Below the pieces are notes generated by a model. It had not been told where the DNA came from and ran no database searches. It was given only the letters and a program-made list of their open reading frames with translations. The position numbers and the translations under genes were made by a program. A stretch of 64,000 bases of DNA from Eubacteriales bacterium OttesenSCG-928-K08 (GTDB taxonomy: Bacteria > Bacillota > Clostridia > Christensenellales > CAG-138): NCBI GenBank assembly GCA_030266105.1, contig JAJDHH010000001.1, positions 29,402 to 93,401 of the forward strand, written 5' to 3'. How positions within the stretch are numbered: position 1 is the first letter of the stretch; each line of letters opens with the position of its first letter. Of the stretch, positions 2,991-58,956 are shown piece by piece.

Positions 2991-3506
2991 TTACCTGAGA
3001 GATTCGTGTATCCATAAATCCAGTACATAATCGCTAAAATTTAGCGCCGCAAGCTCTTTTGTGCTAACTTTTTGAATTAAATCGGCATCCAATGTAAAAC
3101 TGATTACCTTATCGCCACCATATTCATCGCTGACGGCCCAGTATTGAATTTCGGTGTAATCGCCGCCGTTGCCCTTCTGAATAAAATTTTCGACCGTATG
3201 ATAATTTTGCTGAATTGTAGCCTTATTGTTATAGCTTGATGAAATGCTATACTTTAGAATAATCATTCCATCGCCGTGGTCAACCATTTCTAGCAGCTCT
3301 CCGTACCCGCCCCACTCATCGCCGGTCTGCGGATCGTCCTCAAGTGTTAATTCTGGCGTCGGCTCAAGCGGTGTGTTTTGCGCAACAGGATTTGTTTTCT
3401 GTCTGCCCGCCATAATGCCAGTAACAATAATTACCGCTAATATAGCTGTGACAATCACTATAAATTTGGTCGTTTTATAAAATGGTATTTTTGTTTTCAT
3501 AAGCAA
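2991..3506 (-). CDS. N-terminally membrane-anchored extracytoplasmic protein, function unknown
   Basis: 171 aa with a single N-terminal TM (FIVIVTAILAVIIVTGIMAG). Located between the repressor and int. Confidence 0.6.
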   Translation of the reverse strand: MLMKTKIPFYKTTKFIVIVTAILAVIIVTGIMAGRQKTNPVAQNTPLEPTPELTLEDDPQTGDEWGGYGELLEMVDHGDGMIILKYSISSSYNNKATIQQNYHTVENFIQKGNGGDYTEIQYWAVSDEYGGDKVISFTLDADLIQKVSTKELAALNFSDYVLDLWIHESLR

Positions 3507-3522: not shown

Positions 3523-4170
3523 TCATCTAATTCTACTCTTAAAAATTACAGCCTTGCCAAGTATGCGCATGTTTTCCGCCTGATCGCCGATATACACAAA
3601 ATCTTTGACCATTGGGTTTTCAGCAACAAGCGTAACGCGCCCGGGCTGCCTGTACACGCGCTTTAGTGTGACCTCATCGTCAATTAGCACCGCCGCGATC
3701 TCTCCATTATCAACCGTGGGCTGCTGCCTGATATATACGATATCCCCATCCAATATGCGCGCGCCGATCATGCTGTCGCCCTTGCAACGGACAGCAAAGT
3801 CACAATTTATATCCTCATCGACATTTATGTATTCGTCGTAATTTTCTGCCGCAAGTATCGGCTCCCCGCAGGCAATATCGCCAAGCAGGGGAACTTTTTT
3901 TGTTTTTGGGAGGGGTTCAACATTTTTAAGGGTTAGGATGTCTCTTAAATCAGTCTTATCCTCGATTAGATCTGACTTCATAATTCCAAAATAGTTTGCG
4001 AGCATTTCAATCTTATCGATGCGAGGATATGTTTTTCCATTTTCCCAATCAGAAAAAGTAGTATATGCCACGCCCAGTATATCACAAACTTCCGAACGTT
4101 CTTTGTGGTTAAGCGCCATATAGTATTTCAAGTTTCTTGAAAAAATTTCCTTATTTCCGAGTCCGCTCAT
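3523..4170 (-). CDS. CI/LexA-like repressor (XRE HTH plus S24 peptidase domain)
   Basis: N-terminal HTH (ERSEVCDILGVAYTTFSDWENGKTYP). C-terminal S24 motifs GDSM and a downstream Lys (LKRV). RBS GGAGGTG. Confidence 0.9.
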   Translation of the reverse strand: MSGLGNKEIFSRNLKYYMALNHKERSEVCDILGVAYTTFSDWENGKTYPRIDKIEMLANYFGIMKSDLIEDKTDLRDILTLKNVEPLPKTKKVPLLGDIACGEPILAAENYDEYINVDEDINCDFAVRCKGDSMIGARILDGDIVYIRQQPTVDNGEIAAVLIDDEVTLKRVYRQPGRVTLVAENPMVKDFVYIGDQAENMRILGKAVIFKSRIR

Positions 4171-4196
4171 GGCGCACCTCCATATCTAATAAATTT

Positions 4197-4225
4197 ATTG
4201 TACGATAAAACCGTAAAAATTACAA
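4197..4225 (-). promoter_or_regulatory. leftward promoter for the repressor operon (PRM-like)
   Basis: The minus strand reads TTGTAA, 17 nt, TACAAT. An ACGGTT operator half-site lies in the spacer. Confidence 0.5.
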
Positions 4226-4255
4226 TATAATTTTTTATTTTATACGATTTAACCG

Positions 4256-4284
4256 TTGACATTACGGTTTAACCGTTATATTAT
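4256..4284 (+). promoter_or_regulatory. rightward early promoter (PR-like) with operator palindrome in the spacer
   Basis: TTGACA (4256-4261), 17 nt, TATTAT (4279-4284). Palindrome ACGGTTTAACCGT at 4264-4276. Confidence 0.6.
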
Positions 4285-4306: not shown

Positions 4307-4510
4307 ATGGGCATGACGCTTAAAGCTGCACGAGTCAATGCGGGGTACAATCAGGCTGAGGCAGCTAAAATCCTTAACATATCAGTATATACGCTTAGCA
4401 ATTACGAGCGTGGAATCTCATTTCCAGATGTGCCGATCTTGAAACGGATCGAACAAGCATATGGCGTAGGATACGATCAGCTAATTTTTTTATCTCAAAA
4501 ATACGGTTAA
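4307..4510 (+). CDS. Cro-like XRE-family HTH regulator
   Basis: 67 aa, HTH QAEAAKILNISVYTLSNYERG, divergent from the CI-like gene, RBS GGAGGTG. Confidence 0.85.
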   Translation: MGMTLKAARVNAGYNQAEAAKILNISVYTLSNYERGISFPDVPILKRIEQAYGVGYDQLIFLSQKYG

Positions 4511-4556
4511 ACCGTAATATCGCCACATCAGCTAGGGGAAAGGAGTAGTAATCAAA

Positions 4557-4787
4557 ATGAAAACGCCCGTATTGCGCATAACGCACCAAAACGGATATAC
4601 ATTGTGGATTGATGGCGTACCAGCTAATTATGCTACCGAAGCAATCATTCGCATTTCTGGCTCTGGGAGAGCTTCTTTAAGGGTGGTGCAAGAGACCGAG
4701 GTTGAACTAGAAGCTTCCTTTTATGAGCTCGGCAATCACCTGAACGGCAATGTCCTTGAGAGCGCGCAGAGATGTAACGCCGAGTGA
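4557..4787 (+). CDS. hypothetical protein
   Basis: 76-aa ORF with RBS GGAGTAG. Its 3' end overlaps the convergent ORF 4707..5081. Confidence 0.4.
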   Translation: MKTPVLRITHQNGYTLWIDGVPANYATEAIIRISGSGRASLRVVQETEVELEASFYELGNHLNGNVLESAQRCNAE

Positions 4788-5081
4788 TGACGCTTTAGAT
4801 TTGGTCTTTTCCCAAACGGTATTTGATCGAATATCTGCTAAAAACTCATGTCCGTTTGGAGTTAAATCTTGCACACTCGCACCGCTTCCATGTATGTATC
4901 TCTTGAATCCTAATATGAGGCCAGATTGAAAGCACTGATCCATGTGATAAATTATTTCTTCGCTTGTATAGTGCGTTAAGTTTTCGTCTCTATCGTCTGG
5001 GAACATATATTGCTTGGATGGAGTAACAACATTTTCGATATTAAGCAGTACATCGCGAATGCAATCGGGATTAAGCCTCAT
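4707..5081 (-). CDS. winged-helix-like protein (DUF2513/YjcQ-like by recollection)
   Basis: 124 aa. N-terminus MRLNPDCIRDVLLNIEN and overall layout resemble DUF2513-type phage proteins. Transcribed opposite to the early lytic genes. Confidence 0.5.
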   Translation of the reverse strand: MRLNPDCIRDVLLNIENVVTPSKQYMFPDDRDENLTHYTSEEIIYHMDQCFQSGLILGFKRYIHGSGASVQDLTPNGHEFLADIRSNTVWEKTKSKASSLGVTSLRALKDIAVQVIAELIKGSF

Positions 5082-5155
5082 CGCGTCTACCTCGTTGCTT
5101 TTTCGGCTATTATACTACGCCAATATATACCATCACAAGAAAGGAGCAAGGGCTT

Positions 5156-5479
5156 ATGACTTATAAATTACTGCGAGACAAAATGCAGGAAAAAGGATAC
5201 ACTGCCGCCCTGCTCTCAGAAAAGCTTGGATGCGGGAAGACATACATATCGAATTGCATGTGCGGACGTGCAGAATGGAAATTGCATGAAATCTATAAAA
5301 TCATGGGCTGGCTCTCGATCCCAAAAAGCGAGATGCACTTGTATTTTACCGAGGACGGCAAGCCATATGTTTGTAAGCAGCCTCAGAAAAAAACGCAAGA
5401 ACCGGGAATACCGCAAGAAATCCTTGGAGAGTTGGGTGCAGCGCTTGTAAGGGCGGTTCGCTCGCTTGAGCTATCGTAA
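5156..5479 (+). CDS. HTH-containing early regulator, family uncertain
   Basis: 107 aa, GYTAALLSEKLGCGKTYISNCMCG helix-turn-helix-like segment, RBS AAGGAG. Confidence 0.55.
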   Translation: MTYKLLRDKMQEKGYTAALLSEKLGCGKTYISNCMCGRAEWKLHEIYKIMGWLSIPKSEMHLYFTEDGKPYVCKQPQKKTQEPGIPQEILGELGAALVRAVRSLELS

Positions 5480-5620: not shown

Positions 5621-6613
5621 ATGAAAGCATACAAGGGGTTTGATAAAAACATGCAATGCCGGGGTTTTCAATTTGAGGTCGGCAAAGAGTATGTTGAGGA
5701 TCAAGCAAAACTATGTCAGCGTGGATTCCATGCGTGCGAAGCGCCGTTGGGTGTATTCCGGTACTACGCGCCAAACCAAAGCGTATACCACGAGGTGGAG
5801 CTGTCGGATGTGAGCAACGAGCGCAAGGAAGACTCCAAGGTTGTTGGTAAAAATATTAAGATAGGCGCAGCGCTTGATATCGCTGGTCTTTGCAAAGCAC
5901 AATTTGAGTTTGTAAAAGCACATACCACTTATGAGCATACCGATCCAAAACAGGCCACGGCTGGTGAGTACGGAGCCGCCACGGCTGGTGAGTACGGAGC
6001 CGCCACGGCTGGTGAGTACGGAGCCGCCACGGCTGGTGAGTACGGAGCCGCCACGGCTGGTGAGTACGGAGACGCCACGGCTGGTGAGTACGGAGCCGCC
6101 ACGGCTGGTGAGTACGGAGCCGCCACGGCTGGTGAGTACGGAGCCGCCACGGCTGGTAACAGCGGAGCCGCCACGGCTGGTGAGTACGGAGCCGCCACGG
6201 CTGGTGAGTACGGAGCCGCCACGGCTGGTGAGTACGGAGCCGCCACGGCTGGTTATCGCGGAGCCGCCACGGCTGGTTATCGCGGAGCCGCCACGGCTGG
6301 TAACAGCGGAGCCGCCACGGCTGGTGAGTACGGAGCCGCCACGGCTGGTAACAGCGGAGCCGCCACGGCTGGTTATCGCGGAGCCGCCACTAGCAAAGGA
6401 AGGGCTACCGTTGGTGAAAATGGCATCGCTTCTGTGCGCGGAAACAATGTGAGTGTTCGCGGGGGCATGGGCGCGATCCTTGTCATATGCGTTGAAAACG
6501 AAAATGATTATGACATTAAGGAATGGCGCGCTGCCGTAGTTGATGGCGAAACTATCAAGGCAGATACATGGTACACATTGCTCGACGGTCAATTTGTGGA
6601 AGTAAAGAACTAA
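5621..6613 (+). CDS. phage protein with conserved N-terminal domain and 18 octapeptide repeats (ATAGxxGA)
   Basis: 330-aa ORF. The N-terminus MKAYKGFDKNMQCRGFQFEVGKEY...GFHACE recurs in phage proteins. The centre is made of a 24-bp tandem array. Confidence 0.8.
   Translation: MKAYKGFDKNMQCRGFQFEVGKEYVEDQAKLCQRGFHACEAPLGVFRYYAPNQSVYHEVELSDVSNERKEDSKVVGKNIKIGAALDIAGLCKAQFEFVKAHTTYEHTDPKQATAGEYGAATAGEYGAATAGEYGAATAGEYGAATAGEYGDATAGEYGAATAGEYGAATAGEYGAATAGNSGAATAGEYGAATAGEYGAATAGEYGAATAGYRGAATAGYRGAATAGNSGAATAGEYGAATAGNSGAATAGYRGAATSKGRATVGENGIASVRGNNVSVRGGMGAILVICVENENDYDIKEWRAAVVDGETIKADTWYTLLDGQFVEVKN
5954..6385 (+). repeat. 24-bp tandem repeat, 18 copies, in frame
   Basis: gccacggctggtNNNNNNggagcc repeated head to tail. 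The variable hexamer is gagtac, aacagc or tatcgc (EY, NS, YR). Confidence 0.95.
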
Positions 6614-9782: not shown

Positions 9783-11390
9783 GTGCAGCTAAGGCCATAT
9801 CAGCAAGAGGCAAAAGAGGCCATACTTGCACAATGGTTGCAAGGCATTCAGCGTACGCTTCTGGTTTTGCCCACCGGCACAGGCAAGACTATTGTTTTCT
9901 CAAAGCTAATCGAAGATTGTGTGCGTGACGGAAACAGGGTTTTAGTATTAGCGCATCGTGGGGAGTTATTGGATCAAGCTGCTGATAAGCTCGCGCAAGC
10001 CACCGGCCTTGGATGCGCAATTGAAAAAGCGGAAGAAACCTGTATAGGGAGCTGGTATCGTGTTGTGGTCGGCTCCGTGCAGTCGCTCATGCGTGAAAAA
10101 CGGTTGAAGCGTTTCTCGCCAGATTATTTTGACAATATCATTGTAGATGAAGCGCACCATTGTATCTCGGACAGTTACCAGCGAGTGCTCGCATATTTTA
10201 AAAATGCAAAGGTTCTAGGAGTTACCGCAACCCCTGACCGTGGAGACATGCGTAATCTTGGAGAGTACTTTGAAACACTCGCTTATGAGTATACGTTACC
10301 AAAAGCCATAAAAGAGGGGTTTTTAAGCCCGATTAAGGCATTAACCATCCCGCTTAAACTAGATTTAACAAATGTGGGCATACAGGCTGGTGATTTTCGC
10401 GCAAATGATCTTGGTACTGCGCTTGAACCTTATCTCCATCAAATTGCTGATGAGATGGTTGCGCATTGCAGTGATCGAAAAACTGTTGTTTTTTTACCTC
10501 TGATAAAAACCAGCCAAAAGTTCCGAGATATCTTAAATCAAAAAGGCATGCGAGCCGCAGAAGTTAACGGCGAAAGTCCTGACCGTGCGCAAATACTTTC
10601 TGATTTTGACAAAGGGCGCTATGACGTTTTATGCAACTCCATGCTTTTGACAGAGGGCTGGGACTGTCCATCAGTGGACTGCATTGTCGTGCTAAGGCCT
10701 ACGAAAATTCGCAGTTTATACAGCCAAATGGTGGGACGCGGTACGCGACTATACCCAGATAAGGATCATTTGCTGTTGCTTGATTTTTTATGGCATACCG
10801 AACGGCATGAGCTTTGCCGCCCAGCACACTTAATCTGCGAAAATGAAGATGTCGCTCAAAAAATGACAGAAAACATTGAAGCGGCAGGAATTCCGTTGGA
10901 TATTGAAGAAGCAGAAGCACAGGCGTCTCAGGACGTTGTTTCATCTCGAGAAGAAGCCTTGGCAACAATTCTTCGCGAAATGCGCACTCGTAAGCGCAAA
11001 CTGGTTGATCCTTTGCAATTTGAAATGAGCATTCAGGCAGAGGACCTCGCAAATTACAAGCCTGCTTTCGGATGGGAAGCCGCACCACCTTCTGCTAAGC
11101 AAGTTGAGGCCTTGGAAAAACGCGGCATATTTGCAGGCGAAATCGATAACGCAGGCAAGGCGAGTCTCCTGCTTGATCGACTATATAAGCGGCAATCAGA
11201 AGGATTGACTACACCAAAACAGATCAGGCTTCTTGAGGGAAAGGGCTTTCAGCACGTGGGTGCATGGCAGTTTGACGATGCACGTAAATTGATCGATCGT
11301 ATTGCAGGGAACGGCTGGCGTGTGCCATATGATATCAACCCCATAGAATATAATCCCGCTAAGATGCAACGTTTGGAGGTGATTGAATAA
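9783..11390 (+). CDS. SF2 DEAD/DEAH-box helicase
   Basis: Motif I LPTGTGKT, motif II VDEAHH, motif III TATPDR, motif VI QMVGRGTR. GTG start. Confidence 0.9.
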   Translation: MQLRPYQQEAKEAILAQWLQGIQRTLLVLPTGTGKTIVFSKLIEDCVRDGNRVLVLAHRGELLDQAADKLAQATGLGCAIEKAEETCIGSWYRVVVGSVQSLMREKRLKRFSPDYFDNIIVDEAHHCISDSYQRVLAYFKNAKVLGVTATPDRGDMRNLGEYFETLAYEYTLPKAIKEGFLSPIKALTIPLKLDLTNVGIQAGDFRANDLGTALEPYLHQIADEMVAHCSDRKTVVFLPLIKTSQKFRDILNQKGMRAAEVNGESPDRAQILSDFDKGRYDVLCNSMLLTEGWDCPSVDCIVVLRPTKIRSLYSQMVGRGTRLYPDKDHLLLLDFLWHTERHELCRPAHLICENEDVAQKMTENIEAAGIPLDIEEAEAQASQDVVSSREEALATILREMRTRKRKLVDPLQFEMSIQAEDLANYKPAFGWEAAPPSAKQVEALEKRGIFAGEIDNAGKASLLLDRLYKRQSEGLTTPKQIRLLEGKGFQHVGAWQFDDARKLIDRIAGNGWRVPYDINPIEYNPAKMQRLEVIE

Positions 11391-13618
11391 TGGCAGAAGG
11401 ATATGACATCAGGGAGGTGCTGGAATATCTCGACCCTGCACCGCTACAATACCAAGATTGGATCAATGTCGGCATGGCGCTCAAGGATGCGGGATATACT
11501 GCGTCTGAATGGGATAGCTGGAGCCGACGAGATTTTAGCAGATATAAGCCCGGTGAATGCTTTCGAAAATGGGACGGGTTCCGTGGCGCGGGTACCCCTA
11601 TCACGGTAGGGACAATTGTTCAGCTTGCTCGCGATCAAGGATGGACGCCGCGCAGACAGTCTGCTGATGGATACGAGCTTGATTGGGACGCACAAATCGG
11701 CGGTAGCAATAATGATCTGCGTATTGTAGACGCAGCTTGGGTTGAAGCGAAAGAAGTTGCTGCTCCTGAAACATGGAACCCCTCCAAAGAATTGATTACA
11801 TACCTTGAAATACTTTTTGAGGCATCAGAAAATGTTGGGTATGTAACTGAGAGCTGGGAGAAGGATGGAAAGCATTTTCCCACTAAGGGGTGTTATGATC
11901 GCACTGCCGGGCAACTTATTGAACAGCTAAATAAATGCAATGGTGATATTGGCAGCGTCCTAGGCGATTATAAGCCTGAGGTAGGGGCATGGATTCGTTT
12001 CAATCCAATGGATGGCAAGGGCGCAAAGAACGAAAATGTTACTGATTATAGGTTCGCGCTTGTCGAATCTGATAGCACTAATATTGACCGCCAGAATGCC
12101 ATTATACGCGAGCTGGAGCTTCCTGTGGCTTGCCTTGTGCATAGCGGGAAAAAGAGCTTACACGCTATTGTACGCATCGATGCGACCAGCTATGAGGAAT
12201 ACCGGAAACGTGTTGATTATCTCTATGACGTTTGTAAAAAGAACGGGTTGACGGTAGATACTCAAAACAAGAACCCCTCCCGCTTATCTCGCATGCCTGG
12301 CGTAATGCGCGGCGGAAACAAACAGTTCCTGGTTGATACAAATATCGGCAAAGAGAATTGGAACGAATGGCGGGAATGGATCGAAAGTATCAATGATGAT
12401 CTTCCGGAGCCAGAAAGCCTTACAAGCGTGTGGGACGCCCTGCCTGCGCTATCACCGCCGTTAATCGAAAATGTTTTGCGCCAAGGCCACAAAATGCTTC
12501 TGGCGGGTCCCAGCAAGGCGGGTAAGTCTTATGCCTTGATCGAATTATGTATCGCTATTGCAGAGGGCAGGAAGTGGCTACAATGGCCATGCGCAAGGGG
12601 GCGAGTACTATATGTCAACCTTGAGCTTGATCGTGCCAGCTGCCTGCATCGCTTTAGGGATGTGTATGATGCTCTCAAGTGCACGCCCGCCCACTTAGAC
12701 AACATTGATGTTTGGAATTTGCGCGGAAAGGCTGTACCAATGGATAAGCTTGCGCCTAAACTGATACGCCGCGCAGTTAAGAAAAACTATATCGCAATCA
12801 TAATTGATCCGATTTACAAGGTAATCACAGGCGATGAAAACAGCGCAGATCAAATGGCGAATTTCTGCAATCAATTTGATCGTGTCTGTTCGGAGCTGGG
12901 AGCAGCGGTTGTTTACTGCCACCATCACAGCAAAGGTTCGCAGGGGCAAAAGCGGAGCATGGACAGGGCTTCTGGGTCTGGCGTATTTGCTCGTGATCCT
13001 GATGTTCTGCTGGATTTAATAGAATTGGATGTTACTGATAGTCTGCGTGCGCAGGAGGAAAACAAGGTTGTTAGCGCTGTATGCGCTGCTGCATTAGAAG
13101 CTGAGAGTAAGGCAAATGAAGCATCCCAGGATGATTTGTGCAGCATGCGAGCGATGCTTGAAATATGCAAAGAGCATCTAAGCCCAAGTTCTTTTGCTTC
13201 ACTTATTGCAAAAATAGAGGAAGCTAAAAAACAGGCTGCCCAACGCAGCGCATGGCGCATTGAGGGTACGTTGCGCGAGTTTCCAAAGTTCCCGCCGGTA
13301 AACCTTTGGTTTGATTATCCTGTGCACCATCTGGACGAGGTAGGAAGCCTAAAGGATGTAGATGCTGGTGGCGATATGCCGTTTTATCAAAAGGGCGCTG
13401 ATAAAAATAAAAATCAAGCTAAAAAGCGAAAGCTTACCCGTCGGGAACGGCTCGAAAACGCCATAGCAGTTTGCGAGTTGAACGGTGCTACAACAAAAAA
13501 TGTAGCCGAATATTTAGATGTCGAACCTGTTACAGTTCGTAAATGGATAAAGGAACAAGACGAATTTTTCATTGATAAAAATGATGGATTTATAAAAATG
13601 AAGGGGCAAGCTACATGA
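11390..13618 (+). CDS. DNA primase/helicase (PriCT-like N-terminus, primase core, RepA/AAA_25-like ATPase, C-terminal HTH)
   Basis: N-terminal YQDWINVGMALKDAGY...WDSWSRRD block, Walker A LLAGPSKAGKSY, Walker B IIIDPIYK. Confidence 0.8.
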   Translation: MAEGYDIREVLEYLDPAPLQYQDWINVGMALKDAGYTASEWDSWSRRDFSRYKPGECFRKWDGFRGAGTPITVGTIVQLARDQGWTPRRQSADGYELDWDAQIGGSNNDLRIVDAAWVEAKEVAAPETWNPSKELITYLEILFEASENVGYVTESWEKDGKHFPTKGCYDRTAGQLIEQLNKCNGDIGSVLGDYKPEVGAWIRFNPMDGKGAKNENVTDYRFALVESDSTNIDRQNAIIRELELPVACLVHSGKKSLHAIVRIDATSYEEYRKRVDYLYDVCKKNGLTVDTQNKNPSRLSRMPGVMRGGNKQFLVDTNIGKENWNEWREWIESINDDLPEPESLTSVWDALPALSPPLIENVLRQGHKMLLAGPSKAGKSYALIELCIAIAEGRKWLQWPCARGRVLYVNLELDRASCLHRFRDVYDALKCTPAHLDNIDVWNLRGKAVPMDKLAPKLIRRAVKKNYIAIIIDPIYKVITGDENSADQMANFCNQFDRVCSELGAAVVYCHHHSKGSQGQKRSMDRASGSGVFARDPDVLLDLIELDVTDSLRAQEENKVVSAVCAAALEAESKANEASQDDLCSMRAMLEICKEHLSPSSFASLIAKIEEAKKQAAQRSAWRIEGTLREFPKFPPVNLWFDYPVHHLDEVGSLKDVDAGGDMPFYQKGADKNKNQAKKRKLTRRERLENAIAVCELNGATTKNVAEYLDVEPVTVRKWIKEQDEFFIDKNDGFIKMKGQAT

Positions 13619-13640
13619 TTAACTATGCTATTACCCTGTG

Positions 13641-13809
13641 CTACAAGACTGCAAAACAGTGTCGTAGCGCGCGCTACAAGACTAGTCTTTTATCGCGTAG
13701 CATGCGCTATAAGACTGTAATTATAGTGTCGTAGCGCGCGCTACAAGACTGCGTTTTACTGGTATCGCACGTGCGCTACGCCCCTATATATATATATATA
13801 TATAGGGGG
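13641..13809. other. putative phage replication origin (iterons plus AT-rich palindrome)
   Basis: CTACAAGACT or CTATAAGACT at 13641, 13674, 13707 and 13741 (about 33-bp phasing), followed by CCCC(TA)10GGGGG at 13781-13809. Immediately downstream of the primase/helicase gene. Confidence 0.55.
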
Positions 13810-13944: not shown

Positions 13945-14343
13945 ATGCGGACAGAATTTTTTATCCCGATGATCCCGCCCACAACAACACACCAGCAAAA
14001 GCAAGTAACTGTGCAAAATGGAAAACCACATTTTTATGAACCCGCTGAGCTAAGGGACGCACGTGCGAAGCTTTATGCACACCTTGGAAAGCATGTACCA
14101 AAAAAACAATTTAGGGGAGCGTTGCGGCTTGTTGTCAAGTGGTGCTTCCCGGTCACGGGTCAGCACCAAGACGGCGAATACAAAACTTCTCGACCTGATA
14201 CAGATAATTTGCAAAAGTTGCTCAAGGATGTAATGACCGATCTAGGGTACTGGGCAGATGATGCGCAAGTAGCATCTGAGGTGATTGAAAAGTTTTGGGC
14301 ACAAACTCCCGGGCTGTATGTACATATCTTGGAGATTGTGTGA
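13945..14343 (+). CDS. rusA: RusA-family Holliday junction resolvase
   Basis: 132 aa with the RPDTDNLQKLLKDVMTDLGYWADDAQV acidic catalytic block typical of RusA. Confidence 0.8.
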   Translation: MRTEFFIPMIPPTTTHQQKQVTVQNGKPHFYEPAELRDARAKLYAHLGKHVPKKQFRGALRLVVKWCFPVTGQHQDGEYKTSRPDTDNLQKLLKDVMTDLGYWADDAQVASEVIEKFWAQTPGLYVHILEIV

Positions 14344-40886: not shown

Positions 40887-40906
40887 TACGGATAGCACAT
40901 AAAAAA

Positions 40907-40966
40907 TCACCCCCAGCGGTAGACCTCCCGGTTAAATGGGCAGCGTCGAGGCTGGGGGATTTTTTA
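40907..40966 (+). terminator. terminator closing the lysis operon
   Basis: TCACCCCCAGC...GCTGGGGGAT followed by TTTTT. Confidence 0.65.
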
Positions 40967-40999
40967 TTGCAATTTAATAAAATATTTATCTATTTATTG

Positions 41000-41028
41000 T
41001 TGACATTATATCAACTCTATGCTATAAT
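41000..41028 (+). promoter_or_regulatory. consensus sigma-70/SigA promoter
   Basis: TTGACA (41000-41005), exactly 17 nt, TATAAT (41023-41028). Confidence 0.8.
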
Positions 41029-41057
41029 GAGTATATCAGATAAGGGAGGCGCACAAA

Positions 41058-41477
41058 ATGAAACTAACAGCACGGCAGCAAAAATGGTTTAACCTTGGTA
41101 TTGAGATGGCTAAAGAGTGCAGTAGCATTGATGAAGCTTTTTATTACATGGATAATGAACTTGCAAATGAAATGAATTATGGCACATACTCAAATGGTAA
41201 ATTTTTTGTAGCTGGATTTAAGGGTCATACACCTGAATGGCGTGAAGCATATCGTTACGGTGAAATCCCTGAAAGTGGACGCTCAATTAATTATGCAGAA
41301 AATAAATGGGAAAGCGGCGTATCGGTAATTAAGTTAGATATGGATGTACCAAGTATTTATGACGTAACTTTAGGATGGCAAGGTATTGAAAAGATAAAGG
41401 TCGCTGGTTGGTACTTTGGTGATAGCGGGAGCGATGGTGAAGCCCTGTTGGTGGATGCGGTAAAGGTTGAGGGATAA
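41058..41477 (+). CDS. hypothetical protein, no family recognised (cassette gene 1)
   Basis: 139 aa, RBS AAGGGAGG, more AT-rich than the flanking phage genes by eye. Confidence 0.7.
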   Translation: MKLTARQQKWFNLGIEMAKECSSIDEAFYYMDNELANEMNYGTYSNGKFFVAGFKGHTPEWREAYRYGEIPESGRSINYAENKWESGVSVIKLDMDVPSIYDVTLGWQGIEKIKVAGWYFGDSGSDGEALLVDAVKVEG

Positions 41478-41527
41478 TTAAATAAGCCGAGCGGGGCGGC
41501 AAAACCCCGCAGGAATGGAGGAAAAGC

Positions 41528-41977
41528 GTGAAAAAAGTACTAAGTGGATCAGTATATGATACCGAAAGAGCAAGGATGATTGGCGAATGGGAAAACGGAC
41601 TATTGCCAAATGATTTTGACTATGTACGCGAGGCGCTGCACTGCTCTAAATCCGGCAAGTACTTTTTGCACGGGGAGGGCGGTGCAAATTCGCGCTACGG
41701 AGAGTGGAATGGTAATAGCGGAAGCTATAGCGAAAGGATCATCCCCATGAGTGCATCTGAGGCTCAAATTTGGGCAGAAAAGAATCTTGACGGTGATACT
41801 GTTCAGAGGGAATTTAAAATACCAGATGATGGGGACGACGGGGAGCTAGAGGCAATATACTTGCGGATCACACGCGAGGCAAGAATTTTGCTTGATAAAG
41901 AGAGGGCCGAAACAGGTATGAGCATATCAGCATTGGCAGATAAGGCCATAAAAAAGGCTCTTGGCAAAGAAGAGTAA
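41528..41977 (+). CDS. two-domain protein: unknown N-terminal domain plus C-terminal ribbon-helix-helix-like DNA-binding segment (cassette gene 2)
   Basis: GTG start after GGAGGA. The C-terminus LRITREARILLDKERAETGMSISALADKAIKKAL fits a beta-strand, helix, helix CopG/Arc pattern. Confidence 0.65.
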   Translation: MKKVLSGSVYDTERARMIGEWENGLLPNDFDYVREALHCSKSGKYFLHGEGGANSRYGEWNGNSGSYSERIIPMSASEAQIWAEKNLDGDTVQREFKIPDDGDDGELEAIYLRITREARILLDKERAETGMSISALADKAIKKALGKEE

Positions 41978-41991
41978 TTGTAGGGGGATTT

Positions 41992-42966
41992 ATGGCGAAA
42001 AGCAACCGCAAACGACTTGAAGAAATGCAACCACCGGAAAGGTTTGTCGATCATGTACAAAAAGCCTTTCCGCGCGCATGGGAACAGGTCGAAAGGTTTA
42101 GGGCATACCCGCCCAAGCCGTGGCCGCACTGGTGCTACATACCCATTGCAGCTACTTACGCAATCGCTACTAACGGCGCAAATGTGAATGAGGCGAAGGA
42201 AATATTAGCTACCATTGGAGTGCAATGGCCAGCCATGATTGCCGCCGCTGCTGCCTGGCGAAAAACAAAAGGCGTATACCGTTTCGATAAAGACCTTGCG
42301 CGCGAACTCATGGAGCAGCCCATAAGCGGTGAAATCCCTGTGGAGGTATTCTTACATTTGCCCGAATGGTGTGTTTATATCGAATTGCCCGATGAAGATA
42401 AATACATCGGCTTGTTTGCACATTTAGAATATGATATTAAAACGCAAGGTCAAGAACTGCGCTTCGTTTTTTTGGATAAAAATGAAGCGCCAACCACAAT
42501 GGTGCTAATGCTGGAAAAAACCATCGAAAAATCATGGCAGGCGCTTCTGCGCTCGGCAAAAGAGCAATACCCTGATTTGCCTGACATAGGTGGTGAGTTG
42601 GACTGGCTCATCCCATACATCCAGTTGATTTTATATTTATGCTCCGCGAACGCCGACATGCCGCCCATCCCCAACCCGTTTAATCGCATAAAAACCGGGC
42701 ATAACATACTGCCAATGCTCCGCACATGGGATGTCGGAACCCGCATAGGGGCAGCCATACGCGCCTCCCGCGAAGCGCCAAGCGATCCAGCGCAAGGAAG
42801 TCTCAGCGGTGCGCGTCATGCTCCGCGCGCTCATTTACGCCGTGCGCACTGGCATCATTATTGGGTGGGATCAGGCCGAACAAAGCTTGAGTTGCGATGG
42901 ATTGCCCCCACGTTTGTAGGCGACACGGAAAATTTACCTACAACAATACGGCCAGTAAAAAAATAG
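41992..42966 (+). CDS. 324-aa protein resembling the AcrVA2-like family (assignment from memory, unverified) (cassette gene 3)
   Basis: Blocks HLPEWCVYIELPD, LIPYIQLILYLCSANADMPP and RAHLRRAHWHHYWVGSGRTKLELRWIAPTFVG. Confidence 0.7.
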   Translation: MAKSNRKRLEEMQPPERFVDHVQKAFPRAWEQVERFRAYPPKPWPHWCYIPIAATYAIATNGANVNEAKEILATIGVQWPAMIAAAAAWRKTKGVYRFDKDLARELMEQPISGEIPVEVFLHLPEWCVYIELPDEDKYIGLFAHLEYDIKTQGQELRFVFLDKNEAPTTMVLMLEKTIEKSWQALLRSAKEQYPDLPDIGGELDWLIPYIQLILYLCSANADMPPIPNPFNRIKTGHNILPMLRTWDVGTRIGAAIRASREAPSDPAQGSLSGARHAPRAHLRRAHWHHYWVGSGRTKLELRWIAPTFVGDTENLPTTIRPVKK

Positions 42967-43154
42967 ATTGTGTGATGCTTGATTGGGATAGGCCGAGCTT
43001 CGACTGGCAACTTTCCGGCAACCTTTTTAGTTAAATCGCATAAACGCTATAAACAAAAATCGCCTGATTTAGGGCGATTTTGTTTATACAATGCAAAAGC
43101 CCTCTGGCGGGGAGACCAAAGGGCGTATGTTTGAATTATTTTAAATAAATCAAA

Positions 43155-43175
43155 GTGTGTACTTAGGCGTGTACT
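43155..43175 (+). promoter_or_regulatory. two direct GTGTGTACT / GCGTGTACT repeats, candidate arm-type integrase sites
   Basis: Same motif, orientation and 12-bp spacing as 1504-1524. Confidence 0.4.
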
Positions 43176-43183
43176 GGAAAAGC

Positions 43184-43223
43184 AAAACCCGCCTGAAACA
43201 TAAGCGTTTAGGCGGGTTTTTGC
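43184..43223. terminator. bidirectional hairpin terminator at the prophage edge
   Basis: AACCCGCCT...AGGCGGGTT flanked by A-run and T-run. On the minus strand it lies just 3' of tRNA-Glu. Confidence 0.6.
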
Positions 43224-43251
43224 TGGTACCCTGTAGGGGAATCGAACCCCT
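43224..43251. repeat. attR core
   Basis: Identical to 1364-1391. Forms the 3' end of the intact tRNA-Glu. Confidence 0.85.
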
Positions 43252-43299
43252 GTTACTGCCGTGAGAGGGCAGCGTCCTAGGCCACTAGACGAACAGGGC
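43224..43299 (-). tRNA. tRNA-Glu (anticodon CUC)
   Basis: The reverse complement GCCCTGTTCGTCTAGTGGCCTAGGACGCTGCCCTCTCACGGCAGTAACAGGGGTTCGATTCCCCTACAGGGTACCA folds as a cloverleaf. Anticodon loop is CTCTCAC. CCA is encoded. Confidence 0.9.
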
Positions 43300-45651: not shown

Positions 45652-45680
45652 TTGACAAGCATAATGTGTAGTGATATAAT
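45652..45680 (+). promoter_or_regulatory. consensus promoter of the tRNA-Lys module, copy 1
   Basis: TTGACA, 17 nt, TATAAT. Confidence 0.75.
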
Positions 45681-45800: not shown

Positions 45801-45877
45801 GCCTCCTTAGCTCAGTTGGCTAGAGCACCTGACTCTTAATCAGGGTGTCGGCGGTTCGAGCCCGCCATGGTGTACCA
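45801..45877 (+). tRNA. tRNA-Lys (anticodon CUU), copy 1, with poorly paired acceptor stem (possibly chimeric or defective)
   Basis: The 5' 49 nt are identical to copy 2. Anticodon loop CTCTTAA. The 3' strand ATGGTGT gives two C-U mismatches and two G-U pairs against GCCTCCT. Confidence 0.65.
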
Positions 45878-58730: not shown

Positions 58731-58759
58731 TTGACAAGCATAATGTGTAGTGATATAAT
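58731..58759 (+). promoter_or_regulatory. consensus promoter of the tRNA-Lys module, copy 2
   Basis: TTGACA, 17 nt, TATAAT, identical to 45652-45680. Confidence 0.75.
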
Positions 58760-58879: not shown

Positions 58880-58956
58880 GCCTCCTTAGCTCAGTTGGCT
58901 AGAGCACCTGACTCTTAATCAGGGTGTCCAGGGTTCGAATCCCTGAGGGGGTACCA
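58880..58956 (+). tRNA. tRNA-Lys (anticodon CUU), copy 2, well-paired cloverleaf
   Basis: GCCTCCTTAGCTCAGTTGGCTAGAGCACCTGACTCTTAATCAGGGTGTCCAGGGTTCGAATCCCTGAGGGGGTACCA. All seven acceptor positions pair (two G-U). Confidence 0.9.

Follow-up and report, generated by a model that had tools for sequence, protein, structure and literature searches.

At the right end of a prophage in Eubacteriales bacterium OttesenSCG-928-K08, a Clostridia metagenome-assembled genome, lies a cassette of three genes that are all annotated in GenBank as ‘hypothetical protein’ (LJC42_00370, LJC42_00375 and LJC42_00380, here the open reading frames ORF1, ORF2 and ORF3). We analyzed a 64-kb stretch of the contig that carries this prophage, and refer to that whole stretch as the window. 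We judge it reasonably likely that the cassette constitutes a self-contained accessory operon of the prophage, of the acr-aca type, in which anti-CRISPR (Acr) genes share an operon with an anti-CRISPR-associated (Aca) regulator, and that it is put together from three independently mobile modules. Such an operon would most likely aid the phage in conflicts with host defenses or rival elements. What points to a modular conflict operon is the combination of a strong promoter with a candidate operator embedded in it, variable acidic cargo that includes Acr families, and a terminal DNA-binding gene.

The firmest result concerns ORF3 (41992-42966, + strand, 324 aa, isoelectric point (pI) 8.6), which sequence comparison identifies, with good support, as a protein of the AcrVA2/FinQ family. 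phmmer matches it to AcrVA2 (PDB 7ci1_A) with an E value of 4.2e-19, aligning residues 23-133 and 233-310 of ORF3 with residues 13-122 and 241-317 of AcrVA2, and it matches phrog_6160, a PHROG of unknown function, over residues 11-311 with an E value of 2e-52. Residues W89, D99, H281, R283 and H286 of ORF3 correspond to W79, D89, H286, R288 and H291 of AcrVA2, and are conserved in 34, 30, 32, 32 and 32 of 34 relatives, respectively. In AcrVA2, the substitutions W79A and D89A lower activity, and H286A, R288A and H291A abolish mRNA down-regulation while Cas12a binding is kept (bioRxiv 10.1101/2022.11.29.518452). The last three positions form an HxR..H motif in ORF3 (H281/R283/H286, nt 42832-42849, + strand). 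An earlier note on this DNA, made from the sequence alone, had likened three blocks of ORF3 to those of the AcrVA2-like family, and the family assignment is borne out with all five key residues kept. Two of those blocks, HLPEWCVYIELP and RAHLRRAHWHHYWVGSG, align with NLPDWCVYVDIS and RPHIRRGHWHGYWQGTG of AcrVA2; the third, LIPYIQLILYLCSANADMPP, from which the search pattern CSANADMP was drawn, falls in the stretch that phmmer left unaligned. The ‘hypothetical’ label of the gene is explained by the models available, as none in Pfam, NCBIfam or PADLOC covers this family.

ORF3 is close in length to AcrVA2 of a Moraxella bovoculi prophage (324 aa against a 323-residue chain; PDB 7CI1/7CI2), and with AcrVA2 and the FinQ proteins of E. 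coli plasmids it shares the homology of the N-terminal (aa 23-133) and C-terminal (aa 233-310) parts and the location on a mobile element. FinQ itself is a plasmid fertility inhibitor within the AcrVA2 family (bioRxiv 10.1101/2022.11.29.518452). ORF3 differs from AcrVA2 in its middle third (aa 134-232), which is unaligned, and identity in the aligned stretches is about 30% by eye. Its genomic setting is also distinctive: ORF3 lies directly behind a gene with a fused ribbon-helix-helix (RHH) segment, whereas the 80 viral loci of AcrVA2-like genes that we sampled, with 4 kb inspected around each gene, have no such neighbor. Neither ORF1 nor ORF2 relatives occur within that distance at any of the 80, and no universal partner of AcrVA2-like genes was found among them, the large neighbor families stemming from one set of near-identical big phages. 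At two viral loci, small RHH-like ORFs judged by eye follow the AcrVA2-like gene (L040, 4944-5135, 63 aa; L044, 4980-5219, 79 aa), and so other AcrVA2-like genes may also sit in RHH-regulated operons.

The likeness to acr-aca operons lies with ORF2 (41528-41977, + strand, 149 aa), whose GTG start is backed by the family N-terminus MKKV(I)xGxxYDT. The ORF2 family has 57 homologs in the protein collection and at least 218 loci in IMG/VR viral contigs; gene context was counted at 80 viral loci, and DNA-binding domains were counted in 34 aligned members. In each of four gene-called contexts, as well as in Lactobacillus phage LFP01, the ORF2 homolog ends a two- to six-gene unit that neighbors lysis genes together with the integrase or the att site. 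Across the 80 loci, the gene directly upstream is nearly always a different one, unannotated and a singleton family, and these upstream neighbors have a median length of 114 aa and a median pI of 5.2. When 93 neighbors were scanned with Pfam, most gave no match or matched lysins, holins or recombinases, and two cargo genes immediately upstream of ORF2 homologs passed the AcrIC5 model, at 42.1 bits (L131) and 34.9 bits (L136) against a gathering score of 27. An AcrVA2-like gene immediately downstream of the ORF2 homolog recurs at three of the 80 loci (L134, L141 and L172), with overlapping stop and start codons in two of them, and these AcrVA2-like proteins are 29-33% identical to ORF3. The interval between late or lysis genes and the att site, which the earlier note had regarded as an accessory hotspot, is a typical position for both the ORF2 and the AcrVA2-like families.

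The promoter of the cassette (41000-41028, + strand) consists of a −35 element TTGACA at 41000-41005, a 17-nt spacer that includes TG at 41020-41021, and a −10 element TATAAT at 41023-41028. It matches the sigma-70 consensus at 12 of 12 positions, as read in the earlier note, and the TG makes it an extended −10 promoter as well. Only three promoters of this quality occur on the + strand of the window and the other two (45652 and 58731) precede tRNA-Lys genes, suggesting that such a promoter marks highly expressed genes in this genome. Those two promoters (45652-45680 and 58731-58759) are almost identical, with near-identical flanks, and are followed by tRNA-Lys(CTT) genes at 45802-45877 and 58880-58956; the pair points to duplication of a tRNA gene together with its promoter in the host chromosome.

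Within the spacer of the cassette promoter lies a candidate operator, TTATATCAACTCTATG (41006-41021, + strand), which represents a spacer motif that travels with ORF2-family genes. The family promoter takes the form TTGAC(A/T)-TTATATAAACTCTATG(C/T)-TATAAT at many loci. Allowing up to three mismatches, the 16-mer TTATATAAACTCTATG is present on the coding strand of 28 of the 80 ORF2-family loci (nine of them exact), compared to 2 of the 80 AcrVA2-like loci used as a control, and its sole copy in the window is the one at 41006, inside the cassette promoter. A promoter matching at least 11 of 12 positions precedes the gene by no more than 1.5 kb, on its coding strand, at 33 of 72 ORF2-family loci; the opposite strand has one at 4 of 72, and the controls downstream of the genes give 8 of 67 and 2 of 67. 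The three operons in which an AcrVA2-like gene follows the ORF2 homolog (L134, L141 and L172) open with promoters of 12/12, 12/12 and 11/12, all TG-extended. Many loci carry a second copy of the spacer motif about 27 bp upstream, inverted or direct, and variant elements are likewise duplicated within a locus, the two copies co-varying (TTGGCTAAACTCTA with TAGAGTTTAGCCAA at L112, and two copies each of CATTACACGAAACG at L134 and TTTAAATAAATG at L166). Across 30 non-redundant loci, similarity in the first 12 spacer bases tracks RHH-tail identity (rho 0.16, permutation p 0.02) and shows no correlation with N-domain identity (rho 0.05). The loci with TTATATC in the spacer (the window, L140 and L098, the others having TTATATA) all have Tyr at position 2 of the RHH strand, a match made by eye and only suggestive. 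At L150, a full ORF2-type promoter with two operator copies stands on either side of the ORF2 homolog (2202-2681), at 1492-1534 and again at 2768-2810, and the downstream repeat suggests that the regulator also controls a neighboring operon.

Two other candidate operators in the cassette were rejected. The downstream member of a TATATCA pair (41008 and 41033) sits in a 5' untranslated region (UTR) that is common to ORF1 homologs with unrelated spacers, and a CATTATA/TATAATG inverted repeat is mostly the −10 hexamer itself. The UTR form (a)gtatCAGAt(c)AAGrGAGG is shared by ORF1-homolog loci despite their differing promoter spacers. The control region in the window, with an ORF2-type core promoter and an ORF1-type leader, is thus a mosaic.

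ORF2 itself is laid out as an N-terminal domain of about 100 residues, rich in beta strands and with two helices, followed by an acidic linker and a C-terminal RHH segment at about aa 108-146 (nt 41849-41965). Its AlphaFold2 (AF2) model, with a mean confidence (pLDDT) of 87.6, has eight strands, two helices, a disordered acidic linker and C-terminal helices at 116-129 and 133-144. Conservation in the family centers on the first 100 residues or so, with the motif FLHGEGGxNSRYGEWHGNxG. The earlier note could name no family for this domain, and neither can we: ORF2 belongs to no named family in Pfam, NCBIfam, PHROGs or PADLOC, a Foldseek comparison of the model with the PDB gave no significant fold match (the best being Pur-alpha, at E 0.5), and a profile search of PDB sequences returned only a weak CopG match, to the tail. 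The N-domain occurs alone, without a DNA-binding tail, at 14 of the 80 loci. A relative of it, with 37% identity over 104 aa, is encoded at 5026-5337 of BK063670.1 (Caudoviricetes sp. vir526, listed host Methanomicrobiales), and so its range may reach beyond Firmicutes phages to a virus assigned an archaeal host. The tail is the more variable part of the family. Pfam RHH_1 is found in 17 of the 34 aligned members, with a best E value of 1e-7; in one homolog an Xre-type helix-turn-helix (HTH_3) replaces the RHH tail, another carries an extra C-terminal extension, and a few members weakly match RHH models of the antitoxin type, such as FitA-like.

What would be expected of an Aca regulator is therefore found in the ORF2 family, namely a small DNA-binding protein, an operon shared with Acr genes and variable cargo, and conserved promoter repeats. 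ORF2 probably behaves like an Aca regulator and represses its own operon. This agrees with the small DNA-binding autorepressor that the earlier note had expected by analogy with anti-CRISPR operons: judged from family context, promoters, spacer motif and RHH or HTH domains, ORF2 appears to be a protein of that kind. Among known systems, Aca14 is an RHH-type Aca whose operator lies over the −10 element, AcrIF25 is an Acr whose RHH module is an HTH in a homolog, and control of multiple operons has been reported for Aca proteins (bioRxiv 10.64898/2026.07.27.740549). The cassette resembles the operons of Aca14 and of the self-regulating AcrIIA1 and AcrIF25 in being short, in its strong promoter and in having a DNA-binding gene behind variable acidic cargo, and the ORF2 family shares with acr-aca operons both the repeats overlapping the core promoter and the presence of known Acr families in the same operons. 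The exchange of RHH for HTH in one ORF2 homolog parallels that of AcrIF25, and the duplicated promoter-operator at L150 recalls the multi-operon control of Aca proteins. There are differences as well. The candidate operator of ORF2 lies in the spacer between −35 and −10, not over the −10 element as in Aca14, and unlike known Aca/Acr fusions, ORF2 has a conserved N-domain that lacks a PDB fold match and a Pfam family and that also stands alone. We consider the ORF2 family to be probably an undescribed Aca-like family, as compared with the models of Pfam, NCBIfam, PHROGs and PADLOC.

A further candidate control element lies between ORF1 and ORF2, just 5' of the ORF2 ribosome-binding site (RBS). 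It is a hairpin at 41486-41512 (+ strand) of the form GCCGA-GCGGGG-CGGCAAAA-CCCCGC-AG, with a stem of 41491-41496 paired to 41505-41510. Eight copies of this element are found, each in an ORF2-family operon, on its coding strand and immediately ahead of an RBS; besides the one in the window, they lie at L126 (~1132-1160), L128 (~482-510), L113 (~2167-2195), L147 (~3611-3640), L096 (~104-140), L110 (~1344-1375) and L111 (~3094-3125). The consensus is GCCGR-stem-CGGCNAAW-stem'-AG, in which flank and loop are conserved and four of the six stem pairs co-vary. The initial search demanded a stem, so its counts are biased to structure; a looser pattern without that requirement returned the same eight copies, every one of which forms the hairpin. 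The flank GCCG could pair with the loop CGGC, making a pseudoknot possible, and these bases hardly vary (GCCG in seven of the eight copies). Rfam has no match to the element. A general hairpin ahead of ORF2-family genes was considered and rejected, as the 55 nt upstream fold with a mean of −9.0 kcal/mol compared to −10.6 kcal/mol for random segments, and only the sub-family element is conserved. RNA binding has been reported for Aca2 and Aca1 (bioRxiv 10.64898/2026.07.27.740549), and by this analogy we suggest, speculatively, that the hairpin may act in the control of translation or else of processing.

The third module, ORF1 (41058-41477, + strand, 139 aa, pI 4.65), appears from profile comparison to be a standalone copy of an undescribed, or at least unmodeled, domain of polyvalent proteins. 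Only six close homologs were found, and a scan of the genome collection gave one locus, while a profile search of 1.8 billion representatives gave 423 relatives, many of them internal domains of proteins of 1.1-3.5 thousand residues. Some of these giant proteins carry LPD3, MuF_C or NUDIX domains. The AF2 model of ORF1 (pLDDT 84.6) matches large viral proteins in BFVD, one of them a 1477-aa ‘ART-PolyVal-like domain-containing protein’. Iyer et al. 2017 (PMC5512222) proposed that polyvalent proteins accompany invading DNA into the cell, and described solo occurrences of their domains as well. In such giants, the core of ORF1 (about aa 45-138) is one domain among many, and like the LPD domains described in that work it has solo copies near phage genes; it differs from the domains known from polyvalent proteins in falling outside every Pfam LPD or other model. 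As the earlier note had found, no family can be named for ORF1, which has no match in Pfam, PHROG, NCBIfam, PADLOC or the PDB, by sequence or by fold, and neither it nor ORF2 shows a significant PDB fold match in the AlphaFold and Foldseek comparison that the note had called for. No relevant Pfam model, including LPD or other named domains, matches any of 46 ORF1 family members, Pfam gave no matches in four further giant proteins with the domain, and no ORF1 protein match was found among GenBank phages. A weak Pfam hit to AcrIC5 (E 0.096) was followed up and rejected: when the ORF1 family was aligned by hhalign with each of the two cargo proteins that do belong to AcrIC5, the probability was below 1%. 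Within the family, R66, S76, E128 and the G residues are invariant, N78, E85 and D126 are nearly so, and S89 is a conserved polar position. The invariant polar residues suggest that the ORF1 domain is an enzyme.

ORF1 homologs have a genomic habit of their own. Most often a near-consensus promoter has the ORF1 homolog as its first gene: at 14 of 16 loci, the 400 nt upstream contain a promoter of at least 10/12 with 17-nt spacing, mostly 54-70 nt before the start. The promoter spacers at these loci differ from one another, often with palindromes of their own, and the 5' UTRs resemble that of the window. Where the downstream sequence is readable, most loci have a small DNA-binding gene within the next one or two genes, and the types include a 63-aa HTH protein, a Zn-ribbon with HTH, larger HTH proteins and RHH-like proteins of 62-65 aa, with Xre-HTH among the types seen and some of these being calls by eye. 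At none of 18 loci do the 4 kb around the ORF1 homolog contain an ORF2-family or AcrVA2-like gene. We presume that ORF1 is a cargo or effector gene of the operon.

Taken together, we propose that the cassette works as follows. Transcription would start from the near-ideal extended −10 promoter, and a dimer of ORF2 would bind the spacer motif TTATATCAACTC through its C-terminal RHH and repress its own operon, much as Aca proteins do; this binding is something we infer. ORF3, like AcrVA2 and FinQ, would recognize a specific nascent protein and, using the HxR..H C-terminal motif, bring about the loss of its mRNA, with Cas12a or another protein of a defense or rival element as candidate targets. 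ORF1 would be the variable cargo, probably an effector with an enzymatic domain that also occurs inside polyvalent proteins of phages and conjugative elements. The occurrence of the ORF2 N-domain without a DNA-binding tail suggests that this domain has a separate effector or sensor role. The three genes would thus benefit the phage against host immunity or competing elements without needing each other. The direction of the conflict (anti-defense or exclusion of rivals) and any activities of ORF1 and the ORF2 N-domain are, like the operator contact, inferred. It is possible, although we hold it rather doubtful, that the operon encodes three separate counter-defense activities, two of them new: an undescribed N-domain effector of ORF2 with a built-in RHH autorepressor, after the fashion of AcrIIA1 or AcrIF25, and the enzymatic domain that ORF1 shares with polyvalent proteins.

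Several observations weigh against an acr-aca operon. The RHH-like ending that the earlier note had seen in ORF2 holds for the family, and the copy in the window is itself sub-threshold (E 0.037 to an Arc-like PHROG, and E 0.17 for the family profile against CopG). Just two of the 93 scanned neighbors of ORF2-family genes belong to known Acr families, and the majority are unannotated. The correlation between spacer and RHH tail is weak and could partly reflect linkage, promoter and gene sharing one locus. The window has no clear second copy of the operator. At L127, an N-domain-only ORF2 homolog (102 aa, 3970-4278) is followed after 93 nt by a MazF/PemK gene (4371-4781); its product is 36% identical to B. 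subtilis EndoA, and this is the sole association among the 80 loci that resembles a toxin-antitoxin system. The TATGY end of the spacer motif is simply the −16 TRTG promoter element that is usual in Firmicutes and Gram-positive bacteria. Finally, a strong constitutive promoter at a prophage end would suit defense genes expressed in the lysogen equally well.

This last point leads to the explanation that survives best after an acr-aca operon, in which the cassette is a defense or inter-element competition operon of the prophage, expressed in the lysogen. ORF3 would then act like FinQ and deplete a key protein of a superinfecting phage or plasmid, and ORF1 and ORF2 would have other exclusion roles. 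Lying between the late genes and attR and having a promoter and terminators of its own, the cassette shows the classic arrangement of a moron. FinQ, a plasmid-borne homolog of AcrVA2 that blocks F-plasmid transfer, cuts the transfer-gene mRNA of another element, and AcrVA2 homologs usually occur where Cas12a is absent (bioRxiv 10.1101/2022.11.29.518452). Against this, no PADLOC defense model matches any of the three proteins at E values up to 1, ORF2-family operons carry AcrIC5-family cargo, and the ORF1 domain occurs with MuF_C and LPD3 in polyvalent proteins, for which delivery together with the incoming DNA of an invader has been proposed. We think such an operon unlikely here, and since ORF3 would work by the same mechanism in an operon directed against host immunity, the two explanations differ in target more than in kind.

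The order of the first two genes, both small and adjacent, the second with an RHH tail and a probable operator, could also be that of an autoregulated toxin-antitoxin pair, in which ORF1 would be the toxin, ORF2 an RHH antitoxin and the AcrVA2-like gene an unrelated passenger. Type II systems in which the toxin comes first (HigBA, MqsRA and HicAB) are alike in having two small genes, a C-terminal DNA-binding domain and probable autoregulation. The many conserved polar residues of ORF1 (R66, S76, N78, E85, S89, D126 and E128) would be in keeping with a toxin, the HTH and Zn-ribbon-HTH proteins that follow ORF1 homologs recall antitoxins of the HigA or MqsA type, and the MazF/PemK gene at L127 and the weak FitA-like matches of a few ORF2 relatives lean the same way. 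Unlike those systems, however, the cassette has no recognizable toxin or antitoxin family (no toxin family matches in Pfam, NCBIfam or PADLOC), and its partners are not conserved. ORF2-family proteins that are 40-50% identical to each other sit behind unrelated upstream genes, and some lack the DNA-binding tail altogether, as noted above. ORF1 homologs 45-67% identical to ORF1 precede at least four unrelated types of DNA-binding protein, and never an ORF2 relative. A cognate antitoxin would not swap partners so freely, and we therefore consider a toxin-antitoxin pair quite improbable.

The earlier note had taken the three genes as a single system in which ORF1 and ORF2 were the two uncharacterized partners of the AcrVA2-like protein, and had called for a search for the trio elsewhere. 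That search found the trio nowhere else, only the pair of an ORF2-family gene followed by an AcrVA2-like gene recurring, at the three loci described above. An obligate three-component system of a new kind has the tight spacing of the genes in a single transcription unit and that recurrent pair, twice with overlapping codons, in its favor, and is nevertheless contradicted by the way in which the genes fail to co-occur (the trio is met on this contig only, ORF1 homologs stand without either other gene at 18 loci, AcrVA2-like genes have no ORF1 or ORF2 relatives nearby at 80, and 77 of the 80 ORF2-family loci have no AcrVA2-like gene), so that we regard it as highly improbable.

The anatomy of the cassette fits an independent transcription unit, with its own strong promoter and predicted terminators on both sides. 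The three ORFs lie tightly spaced on the + strand where the earlier note had placed them, each of the first two behind an RBS: AAGGGAGG at 41042-41049, within the 5' UTR (41029-41057, + strand), for ORF1, and GGAGG at 41517-41521 (+ strand) for ORF2. Upstream, a hairpin at 40895-40970 (+ strand), flanked by an A-run and a T-run, is predicted to fold at −37.5 kcal/mol (z −5.7); none of 200 shuffles folds as well, and an inverted-repeat scan recovers the same element. By this folding prediction, the hairpin ends the upstream late or lysis genes and insulates the cassette. The earlier note had described it as closing a lysis operon, and the terminator with its U-run holds up, while the weakest part of that description is the ‘lysis’ label, which is plausible from position: a 256-aa ORF upstream of the cassette has only a sub-threshold PG_binding_1 match (E 0.007), and the PHROGs matched by two small hydrophobic ORFs are of unknown function. 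Downstream, the two hairpin terminators that had been noted ahead of attR are both strong. The first (43046-43088, + strand) has a T-run, folds at −19.7 kcal/mol (z −5.6) and is also recovered by a consensus scan, and the second (43181-43222, both strands) folds at −25.1 kcal/mol (z −4.6) and is predicted to terminate, on the - strand, the tRNA-Glu gene as well. On the + strand, a further hairpin (43099-43124) is weak (z −1.3). Of the first two ORFs, which had been described as rich in AT, ORF1 is clearly so, at 39.5% GC compared to 48.6% for the rest of the prophage and 52.1% for its late region, and ORF2 only slightly (46.0%); ORF3 has 50.3%. Neither a DNA-level copy of the cassette among GenBank phages nor, in an Rfam scan of the cassette, anything besides tRNA was found.

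The prophage spans about 41.9 kb of the window. Its attR core (43224-43251) is a 28-bp exact direct repeat, TGGTACCCTGTAGGGGAATCGAACCCCT, of the 3' end of a tRNA-Glu(CTC) gene (43224-43299, - strand; a tRNA call that Rfam scores at 59 bits), and the twin copy forms the attL core at 1364-1391. A tyrosine integrase gene (1532-2644, - strand) lies at the left end, and the attR placed by the earlier note is thus secure. The ‘tRNA-Gln’ that ARAGORN reports at 1364-1451 opens with the 28 bases of the attL copy of the tRNA-Glu 3' end and is therefore probably a pseudo-tRNA made by integration. The sequence AGTGTGTACT occurs in two copies beside attL (in the 1503-1524 area) and one beside attR (43154-43163), making these candidate arm sites of the integrase; the number of matches was equaled in 4 of 100 shuffles. 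In the early region, a promoter of 11/12 at 4256-4284 has TTTAACCG in its spacer and again, as cgaTTTAACCGttgacattacggTTTAACCGtta, just upstream, probably an operator pair of the lysogeny switch region of the prophage. A 24-bp tandem repeat at 5954-6390 (18 copies, 93% matches), also in the early region, lies inside the ORF at 5621-6613 and codes for an eight-residue protein repeat. A degenerate 33-bp repeat of about 3.4 copies (13640-13751) occupies the gap between the ORFs at 11390-13618 and 13945-14343, and could represent iterons or a packaging site.

Relatives of AcrVA2 are widespread, and only one has a known target; an insulated operon in Clostridia offers a tractable case in which Cas12a may be absent. 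ORF1, for its part, points to an effector domain of polyvalent proteins whose invariant polar residues might make it a new enzyme. The ORF2 family provides a handle for guilt-by-association searches among the Firmicutes phages of gut and rumen, from which few anti-defense genes are known, as it combines a large number of loci with a conserved spacer and hypervariable cargo that already includes the AcrIC5 and AcrVA2 families. Should the cassette indeed encode separate counter-defense activities, the ORF2 family with its promoter-operator and RNA hairpin would mark hundreds of unexplored anti-defense operons in Firmicutes and Clostridia phages. The most useful products of this work are likely an Aca-like family with a recognizable promoter-operator, and a polyvalent-protein domain that existing models do not cover.

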